Notes under the pieces: generated by a model
The model's database searches: none
What the model saw: the letters and a program-made list of their open reading frames with translations, nothing else
Told to the model about the DNA's origin: nothing
Made by a program: the position numbers and the translations under genes
Shown: in pieces, positions 38,548 through 54,241 of the stretch
Layout: each line of letters opens with the position of its first letter
Numbering within the stretch: the first letter of the stretch is position 1
IMG/VR virus record: IMGVR_UViG_3300032227_000993
DNA length: 64,000 nt
Source of the DNA: a virus
Lineage: Duplodnaviria > Caudoviricetes
Direction: 5' to 3' (one strand)

Positions 38548-38637
38548 TGGCGGAGAGTGTGAGATTCGAACTCACGATAGTGTTACCACTATGACGGTTT
38601 AGTAGACCGTTGGTTTCAGCCGCTCACCCAACTCTCC
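38548..38637 (-). tRNA. tRNA-Ser(ACT), class II
   Basis: GGAGAGT/ACTCTCC, G73, long arm ATAGTG-GTAA-CACTAT, anticodon arm ACGGT-CTACTAA-ACCGT. Confidence 0.92.
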
Positions 38638-44245: not shown

Positions 44246-44329
44246 TGGTGGAGAATACTGGGATCGAACCAGTCATGCCGTAGGCGCCGGATTTACAGTC
44301 CAGTGCATCACCATTGATGCTTCTTCTCC
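44246..44329 (-). tRNA. tRNA-Tyr(GTA)
   Basis: CTGTAAA loop, long variable arm, CCA. Confidence 0.95.
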
Positions 44330-46000: not shown

Positions 46001-46738
46001 TTATTCAAATGTTTTGGTTAATGTAGCTACCCAAGCATCTTTGTACAACTGCTGACCATTGACGGTATTAGCACGTTGATTCTGAGTAGTCATGCTTGTG
46101 TTTGTGTAATAACGAACACCAATATCCCAAGCCTTGGGTAATGTGTAAACAGCACCTACGTTGATATCATTATAACTTGCGTTACCATGATTAGCAACTG
46201 CTGTACGACCATAGTGAGCAACAAAACTCAAGTCTTTGAGTTTAGCTGTCAAAGGAGCGAACGATTGTTTAACATCGGCTTGATAGTATTGTGTACCAGC
46301 ACTATTATTCACACCAAAGTAATTACTAGTAGAACGACTGTACTTAAGAGCAACAGGACCATAACCTACGCCAGCATACAATTCTTGTGTGTTGAAGTTA
46401 GGATTTTTACCATTGGTAGCATTAGGATAAAAATAGTTATAAGAACCAACATCGATTGTTAGACCCTTGTAAATATCTTTCTTGTATCCAGCATAGATGT
46501 CTGACTCTACACCAGCGCCGTTTGTATACAGTTGGCTAGAAACACTACTGTTCCAGTTACCAATGTACAAACCGCTTGAGTGAGTGTAGTCGATACCACC
46601 TTGTACTGCTGGGCCATTTTGAGTTTGACTGATACCACGGAAACGGTAATCACTTGCCAAACCTAAATTGCCTGTTACTTGTGCGTGGGCAGAAGTGATA
46701 CCTGCAATCGCAAACAATGCTAATAATAATTTTTTCAT
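46001..46738 (-). CDS. TorF/TIGR02001-type outer-membrane beta-barrel protein
   Basis: Signal peptide, SDYRFRGISQT..PAVQGG.DY, E.D.YAGY, C-terminal F. Confidence 0.85.
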   Translation of the reverse strand: MKKLLLALFAIAGITSAHAQVTGNLGLASDYRFRGISQTQNGPAVQGGIDYTHSSGLYIGNWNSSVSSQLYTNGAGVESDIYAGYKKDIYKGLTIDVGSYNYFYPNATNGKNPNFNTQELYAGVGYGPVALKYSRSTSNYFGVNNSAGTQYYQADVKQSFAPLTAKLKDLSFVAHYGRTAVANHGNASYNDINVGAVYTLPKAWDIGVRYYTNTSMTTQNQRANTVNGQQLYKDAWVATLTKTFE

Positions 46739-46846
46739 TCTAAATTTCCTTTATGTTTTGTACTGCTTAGACTTATATTTAGTGGGCCAACAACAGATCA
46801 ACAAATTTTACAGTAAAAGCAGCGCAATAATTTACATATTTAGGCA

Positions 46847-46870
46847 AAACAAAACCCGCCGAAGCGGGTT
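46847..46870 (-). terminator. terminator of the tmRNA gene
   Basis: AACCCGC-TTCG-GCGGGTT followed by TTGTTTT. Confidence 0.85.
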
Positions 46871-46874
46871 AAGT

Positions 46875-47230
46875 GGTAGTTTCTGTTACGAGGCATTTCC
46901 TGCCCTAAGCAGTGATTAAACTGCTAAAGATTGGCGTTGTGCTGAACGAGCAGAGAACTTAACGTTCTTACCTGAAACAGTTACTTCGCCTGTAGATGTT
47001 TTTGCATTTACAAAGTTTGCTTGATTTACAGTCATCGCCTACTGTGTTGCCTCTTTCGCTATCTCGCCATGTCGAAACCGGTCGGACCCAACAAAGCATA
47101 CTGTGTGGATCTTACGATGGGCCCTCGAAGGGTTGTCCCCACACTCCAGTAGACAATATGCTTTGGTGGATCCGGGGAGAATCGAACTCCCGTCCACAGC
47201 GCCTTCACTACGAAGGAATTACAACAATTC
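46875..47230 (-). ncRNA. ssrA: circularly permuted (two-piece) tmRNA
   Basis: Acceptor piece ending GGGAGTTCGATTCTCCC-CGGATCC-A-CCA (3' end 47164) precedes the coding piece starting GGGTCCG-ACCGGTTTCGAC (47089); G3:U70; tag frame 47005-46916. Confidence 0.9.
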
Positions 47231-47239
47231 TTTTAAAAC

Positions 47240-47479
47240 TTACAGAACGATTTCAGCACTTGCTGGATTGTACGAGGTAATGTATGTGATCCAAGCATCA
47301 GCAGCATTTGTATCTTTCCAAGTACGAGCAACAGTATATTGTGTTTGACCAAAAGTTCTAGTAGCAGCACCGTCGGTGTCGCCATTAGCAACTAATTGTG
47401 CAACATATTCTGTGATAGCAGTACTTTCGGCAGTTGTTGGAGTTCCGTTATTCCAAGTTACTAGTGTGTTAGTAGTCAT
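47240..47479 (-). CDS. hypothetical protein
   Basis: 79-aa T/A-rich ORF with AAGGA RBS. Confidence 0.65.
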   Translation of the reverse strand: MTTNTLVTWNNGTPTTAESTAITEYVAQLVANGDTDGAATRTFGQTQYTVARTWKDTNAADAWITYITSYNPASAEIVL

Positions 47480-47583
47480 ATAATATCCTTAATAATTATT
47501 CATCTTTTTCAAGATAATCTTTTAATTCAATAAGTGCGTAAATTAATACAGCACTCATAACAAACATTGCAAACATAACCATA

Positions 47584-47751
47584 TTAGTTATATCCTTTAA
47601 CAGCCTTACCGTCAATTTTGGGATTGCCCTTTGCATGAGCTTTTAAGAAATAATCCTTTTTACGCTCTTCTGGCAAGGGACCACATCCTAATCTATCCCA
47701 CTCTCGATCAGAGTAGTAATACTGCTGTACAGGCTTTTTGTTCTGTTCCAT
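47584..47751 (-). CDS. small hypothetical protein (55 aa)
   Basis: Not in track; MEQNKKPVQQYYYSDREWDRLGCGPLP; TAAATA 8 nt upstream. Confidence 0.55.
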   Translation of the reverse strand: MEQNKKPVQQYYYSDREWDRLGCGPLPEERKKDYFLKAHAKGNPKIDGKAVKGYN

Positions 47752-47873
47752 AGTAGTAATATTTACCTAAATTAATTAGTTTACTGGTAGCTCGAGCATT
47801 GTAACTCAAGATTTTGAGTATTGTGTGTTTCTACGTTATTATCAAGGCCTTATTAATGTGCAGTTTAACAGGG

Positions 47874-48242
47874 TTATTGATAATTGTCAAGAAATTTTTC
47901 TAAATTGCCATACAAATTGAGCAACATGGCTTCTTTACTGCTAAAAAACACAATATCTACTGGAAAACTCTTTTTAGTTACAACATAATAGGGATTTTGT
48001 AATTTTCTATCCAAATCTAATATGGTCTGTTGGGTAAACAGCATTTCATCGGGTATTTTGTAGGGGTAAAATTTTAATTCTAAGTGTTCGGATAATACTT
48101 TGTATCCTAAGGCTGTCAAGCGCAAGCCGCCACCGGGCCTAATATTAAACCACCAACTGGTTCTGGCAACTTCTACTGTGGTTGTAAACTGAGCAGGAAG
48201 TTGAGCTACCAATTGCTCAGTAAGTTTAAGTTTATTACGCAC
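47874..48242 (-). CDS. hypothetical protein
   Basis: GGLRLT..G motif, coupled ORF. Confidence 0.65.
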   Translation of the reverse strand: MRNKLKLTEQLVAQLPAQFTTTVEVARTSWWFNIRPGGGLRLTALGYKVLSEHLELKFYPYKIPDEMLFTQQTILDLDRKLQNPYYVVTKKSFPVDIVFFSSKEAMLLNLYGNLEKFLDNYQ

Positions 48243-53140: not shown

Positions 53141-54241
53141 TTACTCCTTGAATAAGTTTACTTCTTCCCATGGCAATCCAGACTTGCCAAAATGCCCATA
53201 GTTAGTAGTGCCGCTGTAGATAGGCCGGAACAAGTCGAAGCGATTGATAATACCTTTGGGTGTTAAATCTACATTGGCCTCAATCCATTCGGTTAACGCA
53301 CGGCTATCGCCATCGGACTCTACATAAAAGCTCATGGGATCTGCTACACCAATGGCATAACTAATCTGTACAGTGGCCCATGTGGCTTTGCCTGCGGCCA
53401 CAATGTTCTTGGCAAGATAACGAGCCATGTAAGCAGCACTACGGTCTACCTTGGTAGGATCCTTGCCTGAGAACGCACCGCCACCGTGTGGACTGTAACC
53501 ACCGTAGGTGTCTACAATAATCTTACGTCCTGTTAGGCCTGTGTCGCCATCTGGTCCGCCAATAACAAAACGTCCTGTTGGGTTGATGTAAAACTCTGTG
53601 TTTTCGTCAACATACTCAGCCGGCAATACCTGGCGAATAATCATTTCCACAGTAGCGCGAACAAACTCAATACTGACATCTTCTGAATGTTGTGTAGAAC
53701 ATACTACTTTGGCAATACGCAAAGGTTTATTATTTTCATCGTATTCAAATGTAACTTGACTCTTGGCGTCTGGACCTAACCAATTGGTACTGCCACCTTT
53801 TCTAATTGTAGTAAGTGCTTCTACAATACGATGGCTGTAATAAATTGCCGACGGCATATAGTTTTCTGTTTCGTCACAGGCATAACCAAACATTAGTCCT
53901 TGGTCACCTGCTCCAAAGTTATCTGTACCTAATGCAATGTCTGCTGACTGCCCGTGTAGCAAATTAATAATCTTAACTGTACGCCAATCAAAGCCCGTTT
54001 GCTCGTAGCCAATATTTTTGATAACTTGACGAATAGTTGACTCTACTTTAGCAGGATCTAACTCTCCCTTGTACTCACCAGCAACCACAACTGTGTCTGT
54101 GGTTACCAATGTTTCGCAAGCACAACGAAGACTTGTATCTTGTTTGCTCATTACTAAATCTAAAACGGCATCGCTGATAGCGTCTGCTACTTTGTCTGGG
54201 TGTCCTTCTGATACTGATTCTGATGTGAATAGATAGCTCAA
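53141..54241 (-). CDS. metK: S-adenosylmethionine synthetase
   Basis: FTSESVSEGHPDK, GAGDQG, GGPDGDTGLTGRK, GGGAFSGKDPTKVDRS. Confidence 0.97.
   Translation of the reverse strand: MSYLFTSESVSEGHPDKVADAISDAVLDLVMSKQDTSLRCACETLVTTDTVVVAGEYKGELDPAKVESTIRQVIKNIGYEQTGFDWRTVKIINLLHGQSADIALGTDNFGAGDQGLMFGYACDETENYMPSAIYYSHRIVEALTTIRKGGSTNWLGPDAKSQVTFEYDENNKPLRIAKVVCSTQHSEDVSIEFVRATVEMIIRQVLPAEYVDENTEFYINPTGRFVIGGPDGDTGLTGRKIIVDTYGGYSPHGGGAFSGKDPTKVDRSAAYMARYLAKNIVAAGKATWATVQISYAIGVADPMSFYVESDGDSRALTEWIEANVDLTPKGIINRFDLFRPIYSGTTNYGHFGKSGLPWEEVNLFKE

Follow-up and report, generated by a model that had tools for sequence, protein, structure and literature searches.

A very probably functional two-piece tmRNA gene with a long, non-standard tag in a freshwater T4-like jumbo phage

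The two-piece tmRNA of betaproteobacteria was reportedly described by Sharkady and Williams in 2004. Genes for tmRNA (ssrA) are carried by phages as well, where they have been found in 402 of 18,146 genomes (Buchholz et al. 2022, PMC9004378), and a tmRNA database of 2025 holds 79 unique phage sequences (PMC11915505). One-piece forms are known from the mycobacteriophage Bxz1 group and from Bacillus phage G (PMC4131195), and huge phages with tmRNA, some of which also encode SmpB, have been described by Al-Shayeb et al. 2020 (PMC7162821). A preliminary description of the sequence treated here had called a permuted form in a phage unusual. This view cannot be upheld, since 53 of 133 unique phage tmRNAs are two-piece, 50 of these coming from aquatic phages, and their carriers include Melnitz (Methylophilales) and pelagimyophages of the Mosig/HTVC008M group (PMC9004378).

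With regard to the tag peptides, the long ssrA tags of Mesoplasma and Mycoplasma are recognised by Lon, and E. coli ssrA variants ending in AAV are still ClpXP substrates, with slower decay (PMC9382460). In addition, a Sinorhizobium jumbo phage carries a tmRNA together with six Clp ORFs (PMC11242549).

Here we describe a tmRNA gene in a stretch of 64,000 nucleotides from IMG/VR record IMGVR_UViG_3300032227_000993, the whole of which is called the window in the following. Judged from its sequence, the window very probably contains a functional, phage-borne two-piece tmRNA gene. Two-piece phage tmRNA is already known as a class, to which the window adds a well-supported case, and the unusual trait of its tmRNA is the long, non-standard tag of 29 residues.

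The tmRNA gene and its surroundings

The window is DNA of a freshwater T4-like jumbo phage. Thirteen tRNA genes are interleaved with genes of phage families, and the gene content includes thymidylate synthase, MazG, GTP cyclohydrolase/QueE/PTPS-type (queuosine-type) genes, an exonuclease and an HNH nuclease. The closest relatives of its ATPase are found in the 286-kb Pseudomonas phage PA5oct and in rhizobial jumbo phages of 470-490 kb. About a dozen radical SAM genes are spread over the window (5896-49479), which also has its own S-adenosylmethionine synthetase gene metK (53141-54241, minus strand). Every relative found is a viral contig of IMG/VR, with near-complete phage genomes of 288-357 kb among them, and no integrase context was seen.

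Some neighbouring genes deserve mention in their own right. The gene just after the tmRNA terminator (46001-46738, minus strand) belongs to Gcw_chp (PF09694, E 9.5e-51), a bacterial family of predicted outer-membrane proteins and an odd cargo for a phage. A tRNA-Ser with anticodon ACU (38548-38637, minus strand) has adenosine at anticodon position 34, as do the tRNAs Ser ACU and Asn AUU of the relative L003 (13009-13101 and 13498-13573); in such tRNAs this base is unusual for bacteria. The thirteenth tRNA (44249-44329, minus strand) escaped ARAGORN and was detected by Rfam alone (37.6 bits); its identity with the tRNA-Tyr of Limnohabitans phage DC31 is 87.5%.

ARAGORN and the Rfam models had been named in the preliminary description as checks on the tmRNA, and both agree with it. 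ARAGORN, which was also the detection tool in PMC9004378, calls a permuted tmRNA with a 29-residue tag at 47256..46825 on the minus strand. The Rfam models beta_tmRNA (RF01850; 112.9 bits, E 1.5e-33, gathering cut-off 84 bits) and tmRNA_permuted (RF04321; 107.5 bits, E 5.4e-20, gathering cut-off 47 bits) both match over their full length, so that the match in the window is far above chance level. RF01850 is the best model of its clan, yet in the window the pairs in the middle of P2 are non-canonical and nothing matches the 3' stem of the model, and as alpha_tmRNA is the scoring model for some relatives instead (L033 and L034), the beta subtype is no firm sign of origin. Neither a glutamine (glnA) riboswitch nor any further Rfam family was detected within or adjoining the gene; low-scoring Rfam matches beside it were discarded as chance matches to the terminator. 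A blastn search of 50,697 GenBank phage records returned no DNA similar to the tmRNA gene, and for the 20 kb around it no similarity in these records except to tRNA genes.

The gene appears to contain the full set of sequence and structure elements of a permuted tmRNA. In the direction of transcription, and with the small genes preceding it, the features are:

47862..47890, minus strand: sigma-70-like promoter candidate, TTGACA-17-TAAACT with TG (consensus scan only)
47584..47751, minus strand: orf55, basic protein of 55 aa with the motif EWDRLGCGPLP, conserved upstream of the tmRNA
47496..47582, minus strand: orf28, gene of a small hydrophobic peptide, conserved in L001 and L003
47240..47479, minus strand: orf79, ORF of 79 aa found in the window only; 6 nt separate its stop codon from the point where conservation of the acceptor piece sets in
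~47233..46848, minus strand: complete circularly permuted tmRNA gene (sequence, ARAGORN, Rfam)
47164..47233, minus strand: acceptor piece (Rfam alignments, conservation, covariation)
47226..47222, minus strand: P2 outer strand UGUUG, acceptor piece
47216..47202, minus strand: local hairpin CCUUC/GAAGG, acceptor piece
47201..47195, minus strand: P2 inner strand, acceptor piece
47191..47164, minus strand: T-arm and 3' acceptor strand, GGGAGUUCGAUUCUCCCCGGAUCCACCA (sequence)
47191..47175, minus strand: T-arm, acceptor piece
47174..47168, minus strand: 3' acceptor strand CGGAUCC, acceptor piece
47167, minus strand: A73, acceptor piece
47166..47164, minus strand: encoded CCA, acceptor piece
47090..47163, minus strand: intervening spacer of 74 nt, between CCA and GGGUCCG
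46871..47089, minus strand: coding piece (ARAGORN, Rfam, covariation)
47089..47083, minus strand: 5' acceptor strand GGGUCCG, coding piece
47071..47065 and 47049..47045, minus strand: P2 partner strands, coding piece
47044..47029, minus strand: PK1 stem 1 CAGU/ACUG, coding piece
47005..47003, minus strand: resume codon GCA, preceded by UAAAU (ARAGORN, Rfam)
46916..47005, minus strand: tag reading frame, 29 codons and UAA (ARAGORN)
46925..46908, minus strand: hairpin AGCAGU/ACUGCU with the UAA stop (46918..46916) in its loop
46904..46892, minus strand: post-tag hairpin GGCA/UGCC, a pseudoknot in relatives
46844..46870, minus strand: intrinsic terminator with 7-bp stem, UUCG loop and U-run (sequence scan)

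The 3' acceptor strand with its CCA, ending at 47164, precedes the GGGUCCG that begins at 47089 by 74 nt in the transcript, from which it follows that the gene order is permuted, as the preliminary description had stated. Its further structural claims are borne out as well: the G3:U70 pair is present in the acceptor stem, which we find to be a perfect 7-bp helix with A73, the D-loop analogue GGUUUCGAC is found at 47079..47071 on the minus strand, and the UUCG terminator consists of an AACCCGC stem, the UUCG loop, GCGGGUU and a U-run at 46870..46853. The range it had given, 46875-47230, stops short of the terminator and lacks a few bases at the beginning of the acceptor piece. The T-arm of the window carries a loop of the GUUCGAUUC type, and PK1 stem 2 was read by eye as GC..UGA with UCA..GC and varies little among relatives. 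The tag frame starts at the alanine resume codon, with neither a start codon nor a Shine-Dalgarno sequence. The terminator is present in most relatives, and conservation among them begins at AAAGAAUUGUUG (47233..47222), 6 nt past the stop codon of orf79.

On the minus strand the promoter candidate is thus followed by orf55, orf28, orf79, the tmRNA and the terminator, and relatives have orf122, tRNA-Met, orf55, orf28 and tmRNA one after the other. As a consensus scan revealed no promoter-like site between orf79 and the tmRNA, the simplest reading is that the tmRNA would be co-transcribed with the upstream ORFs and that the 5' end of its acceptor piece would be made by processing. No PHROG or Pfam match was obtained for orf79. 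Homologues of orf55 have the invariant core EW.RLGCGPLP; orf55 itself matches no Pfam family, and its Atlas matches are below 0.9 and unnamed. In 42 of 80 orf55 loci ARAGORN places a permuted tmRNA downstream on that strand, at a distance of 200-935 nt, and Rfam adds seven more (49 of 80 in total). The orf55 protein could be a cofactor of the tmRNA, or the linkage could be mere conserved gene order.

There is also a weak hint that a stable RNA with a CCA end is expressed. In 17 freshwater metatranscriptome runs, roughly one fifth to one quarter of the 31-mers of the tmRNA gene are present. Contigs aligned from four such runs, which belong to four studies, agree with the coding piece (46880-47076) except for 0-2 mismatches and also match the T-arm region (47165-47195). 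The flanking protein genes found no matching contig except for one 36-nt piece with 4 mismatches (46703-46738), which was taken as spurious. Illumina adapter sequence directly adjoins 47164, where the CCA 3' end is predicted, in assembled contigs, which are unreliable for transcript ends, strand and abundance and some of which perhaps come from close relatives. Contigs do not cover the spacer, and those of three runs stop at 46879-46881, neither of which counts as evidence, since contigs break at variant branch points.

Relatives, covariation and exchange of modules

An exact 28-mer of the T-arm and acceptor strand is common to six IMG/VR viral loci, and 80 further IMG/VR loci were reached via homologues of the neighbouring small protein orf55. 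From these loci 40 distinct permuted tmRNA genes were gathered as the covariation set. Tested sequence by sequence, 39 of the 40 have a perfect 7-bp acceptor stem, in 11 different versions, and G1-C72, G2-C71, G3:U70 and A73 are retained in all 39 relatives whose stem is intact. Pairing in the other helices was as follows:

T stem: 100% of cells paired, compensatory change in 4 of 5 pairs
P2 inner helix: 96% paired, compensatory change in 6 of 7 pairs
P2 outer helix: 97% paired, compensatory change in 2 of 5 pairs
PK1 stem 1: 99% paired, compensatory change in 4 of 4 pairs
Post-tag hairpin: 89% paired, compensatory change in 1 of 4 pairs
Local hairpin of the acceptor piece: 79% paired, compensatory change in 2 of 5 pairs

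In the local hairpin, CCUUC/GAAGG changes to CCUUU/AAAGG or GCUUU/AAAGC across relatives, and this hairpin takes the place of the pairs that the Rfam beta model has in the middle of P2. For stem 2 of the post-tag pseudoknot, relatives show the compensatory classes GUUA/UAAC, AUUA/UAAU, ACUA/UAGU and GUCA/UGAC, and in the class of the window the stem consists of GG:CC only. Compensatory changes in at least 40 distinct phage copies show that selection maintains the tmRNA fold.

Two deviations among the relatives deserve mention. In L001/L022, GGGGAAGAUCU replaces the 5' acceptor strand and is unable to pair with the intact 3' strand; this tmRNA is probably a decaying copy or an assembly error, and the broken strand indicates that tmRNA copies can decay. 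Furthermore, the terminal CCA is not encoded in 16 of the 40 relatives (e.g. L012, L015, L020 and L051), which have ACCG, ACCT or AAAA after the stem and would thus need a host CCA-adding enzyme; the window itself encodes CCA.

The spacer of the window (47163..47090) forms a long hairpin that prolongs the acceptor stem and has no ORF inside. Its fold has -31.7 kcal/mol and a z of -3.25, calculated for 85 nt that include 4-7 nt of acceptor-stem flank on each side, and it is presumably removed on maturation. The same spacer is found, identical to the letter, in L010, L040 and L064. The four tmRNA genes with this spacer have different acceptor stems or tags, the stem being common to one pair, and one of the three relatives has a short ALAA tag. 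This combination of identical spacers with differing stems and tags suggests that acceptor stem, spacer and tag are exchanged as modules, and that modular recombination appears to take place within the tmRNA gene. In relatives with long spacers, a Shine-Dalgarno sequence and an ATG directly follow the CCA (L036, L044, L057, L070, L071, L073). The ORFs in these long spacers are mutually unrelated, have 21-62 codons and in several cases encode hydrophobic products, and in L004/L073 the spacer ORF is a homologue of orf55 (L004 1709-1816, minus strand). In these relatives the spacer serves as a slot for small genes.

The tag, host factors and alternative explanations

The tag of the window, AKTSTGEVTVSGKNVKFSARSAQRQSLAV, has 29 residues and ends in SLAV. 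Among the relatives, two classes of tags occur on one scaffold, short canonical ones versus long ones, and the window belongs to the long class. The short tags read ANDEQFALAA, ANDELYALAA, ANDDVYAMAA or ANASNDE[VT]FALAA and are presumably similar to those of beta- and gammaproteobacteria. Long tags have 27-33 residues, mostly 29, and the form A[KN][AT][SN]TGEVTVSGKNVKF...[LF]AV. Across relatives the shared scaffold therefore carries tags ending in ALAA, AMAA, FAV or LAV, of which the LAV and FAV ends are hydrophobic and differ from the canonical LAA/ALAA. The tag sequence of the window was not found in the searchable literature, and the ARAGORN output for it is 'Tag not identified'.

In 22 unique tag sequences of 29 codons, frame, length and position of the stop are invariant, the other long variants (27, 28 and 33 codons) are all in frame, and the serine at position 11 is encoded by TCN as well as by AGT. 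The constancy of frame, length and stop, the in-frame variants and the switch of the Ser11 codon together argue that the tag frame is read. The pooled pN/pS across the tag is 0.77, and its conserved first half is conserved at the nucleotide level too, so that selection on the whole tag peptide is weak or mixed with constraint at the RNA level.

By established biology, tmRNA depends on RNase P, AlaRS, EF-Tu and SmpB. A Pfam search for SmpB (PF01668) had no match in five related phage genomes with sizes of 288-357 kb, of which three are at least 90% complete, while it recovered the protein in 10 of 14 control genomes; SmpB was not found among those ORFs of the window that were scanned either. 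Without an SmpB in the related phages, the tmRNA would have to use that of the host, with which it would need to be compatible, and would likewise need AlaRS, EF-Tu and RNase P of the host. The preliminary description had stated that the phage rescues stalled ribosomes itself; the tmRNA gene is indeed real, and the lack of SmpB in the five related genomes speaks against the independence implied. Its further idea of an anti-defence translation kit is speculative.

Proteases of the Clp type are encoded by the relatives themselves. The three most complete genomes (G001, G003 and G004; 316-344 kb) have a ClpX (NF003745, 505.7 bits, cut-off 359), a ClpA-like protein of full length, whose 797.6 bits for TIGR02639 stay under the cut-off of 993, and a typical ClpP (NF001368, 315.9 bits, cut-off 249) along with a second, divergent ClpP; in G001 the Clp genes lie at L088 2297-2872 and 4502-5098, L093 1412-2614 and L094 1070-3349. 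No Lon was detected in the related phage genomes searched. The Clp set is present in short-tag and long-tag genomes alike.

From these elements the following course of events can be proposed. The gene would be transcribed with the upstream small ORFs as one unit, which would begin at the promoter candidate near 47890 and end in the terminator (46870..46853). RNase P of the host would cut before G47089, and 3' processing would expose the encoded CCA at 47164. The predicted products are an acceptor piece of ~70 nt and a coding piece of ~220-240 nt, joined by the acceptor and P2 helices. The RNA would be charged by the host AlaRS through G3:U70 and brought by host SmpB and EF-Tu to ribosomes stalled on broken mRNAs, which are expected in quantity during a T4-like infection. 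Translation would resume at the GCA at 47005 and append the 29-residue tag ending in LAV, whereupon the ribosome would be freed and the tagged product probably directed to Clp proteases, which related phages encode too.

A different role has been considered in which the RNA acts as a decoy that binds SmpB or ribosomes of the host and blocks or diverts host trans-translation, as has been proposed for mycobacteriophage DS6A, whose form has the tRNA domain only. A phage form that consists of the tRNA-like domain only and inhibits tmRNA is on record (PMC4131195; PMC11915505), the lineage has no SmpB of its own, so that the phage RNA would compete with the host tmRNA for host SmpB, and the tag of the window lacks the canonical ALAA end. 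A decoy, however, needs no reading frame, yet the resume codon, the frame, the length of 29 codons and the hairpin with the stop in its loop are all kept (n=22); moreover, relatives bear canonical ANDE..ALAA tags on the same scaffold, and PK1 stem 1, which precedes the resume codon, is maintained with compensatory changes in 4 of 4 pairs. We therefore regard a decoy function as quite improbable. Still less credit can be given to the idea of a drifting, non-functional relic of a host ssrA that was acquired by recombination or as an attachment-site fragment. The ssrA gene is a frequent integration site of phages, and pieces of it can be present in phage genomes (PMC9004378); in one relative (L001/L022) the acceptor strand is indeed disrupted. 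On the other hand, nothing is missing from the two halves, the tag or the terminator, an integrase context was not seen, and the compensatory changes in 40 distinct phage copies largely refute a relic. In addition, a 32-mer of the T-arm and acceptor strand occurs in no permuted gene among 185,579 bacterial species representatives, the only match there being a one-piece tmRNA of a rumen Clostridia MAG.

Just as hard to believe is a bacterial or prophage origin of the window, in which case the tmRNA would be the host's own. The adjoining downstream gene does belong to the bacterial family Gcw_chp, and the best Rfam model for the RNA is the betaproteobacterial one, but the 13 tRNAs lie among phage-family genes, the relatives are viral contigs of IMG/VR throughout, and SmpB is missing from the five related genomes. 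A functional two-piece tmRNA of the phage thus remains the reading that we strongly prefer. Within it, one could speculate that the long tag serves to retarget products to the phage ClpX, ClpA-like protein and ClpP instead of SspB/ClpXP of the host, with the orf55 protein as cofactor. The long tag of Mesoplasma is a precedent for such a switch to another protease (PMC9382460), and if retargeting were true, the tagging of truncated infection proteins with the aid of host SmpB would amount to a tag-and-destroy circuit run by the phage; in this specific form we nevertheless consider it unlikely. The tag ending in LAV, the linked orf55 and the Clp genes of the relatives are leads, not findings.

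Comparison with described systems

The value of the locus lies in the family, i.e. 40 copies with a structure backed by covariation, modules that appear to be shuffled and two classes of tags, and it extends the class of two-piece phage tmRNAs to freshwater T4-like jumbo phages. LAV/FAV tags, Clp genes and the absence of SmpB together raise the question whether the gain from trans-translation is the recycling of ribosomes alone or directed proteolysis.

Like the genes of Melnitz and the pelagimyophages, the tmRNA of the window is a permuted ssrA of a large aquatic myophage that stands beside tRNA genes, here in a putative operon after a promoter candidate. In contrast to these, it has no glutamine riboswitch and scores best as Rfam beta, not alpha, and its phage is a freshwater one of jumbo size with a 29-residue tag that ends in LAV. 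As in the betaproteobacterial RNA of RF01850, the tRNA-like domain is followed by P2, PK1 and the context of the resume codon, whereas its acceptor stem GGGUCCG differs from the GGGGGUG type of the consensus, and both the middle P2, in place of which there is a local hairpin, and the 3' stem of the model are missing.

A phage ssrA beside large sets of tRNAs in a big genome is also found in Bxz1, phage G and the huge phages, but the tmRNAs of these are standard one-piece molecules and that of the window is two-piece; furthermore, some huge phages have SmpB and the relatives of this phage have none. As in Mesoplasma and Mycoplasma, the tag is far longer than the usual 10-11 residues and has a hydrophobic end other than LAA. 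There is, however, no sequence similarity to those tags, and the related phages have ClpX, a ClpA-like protein and ClpP instead of Lon.
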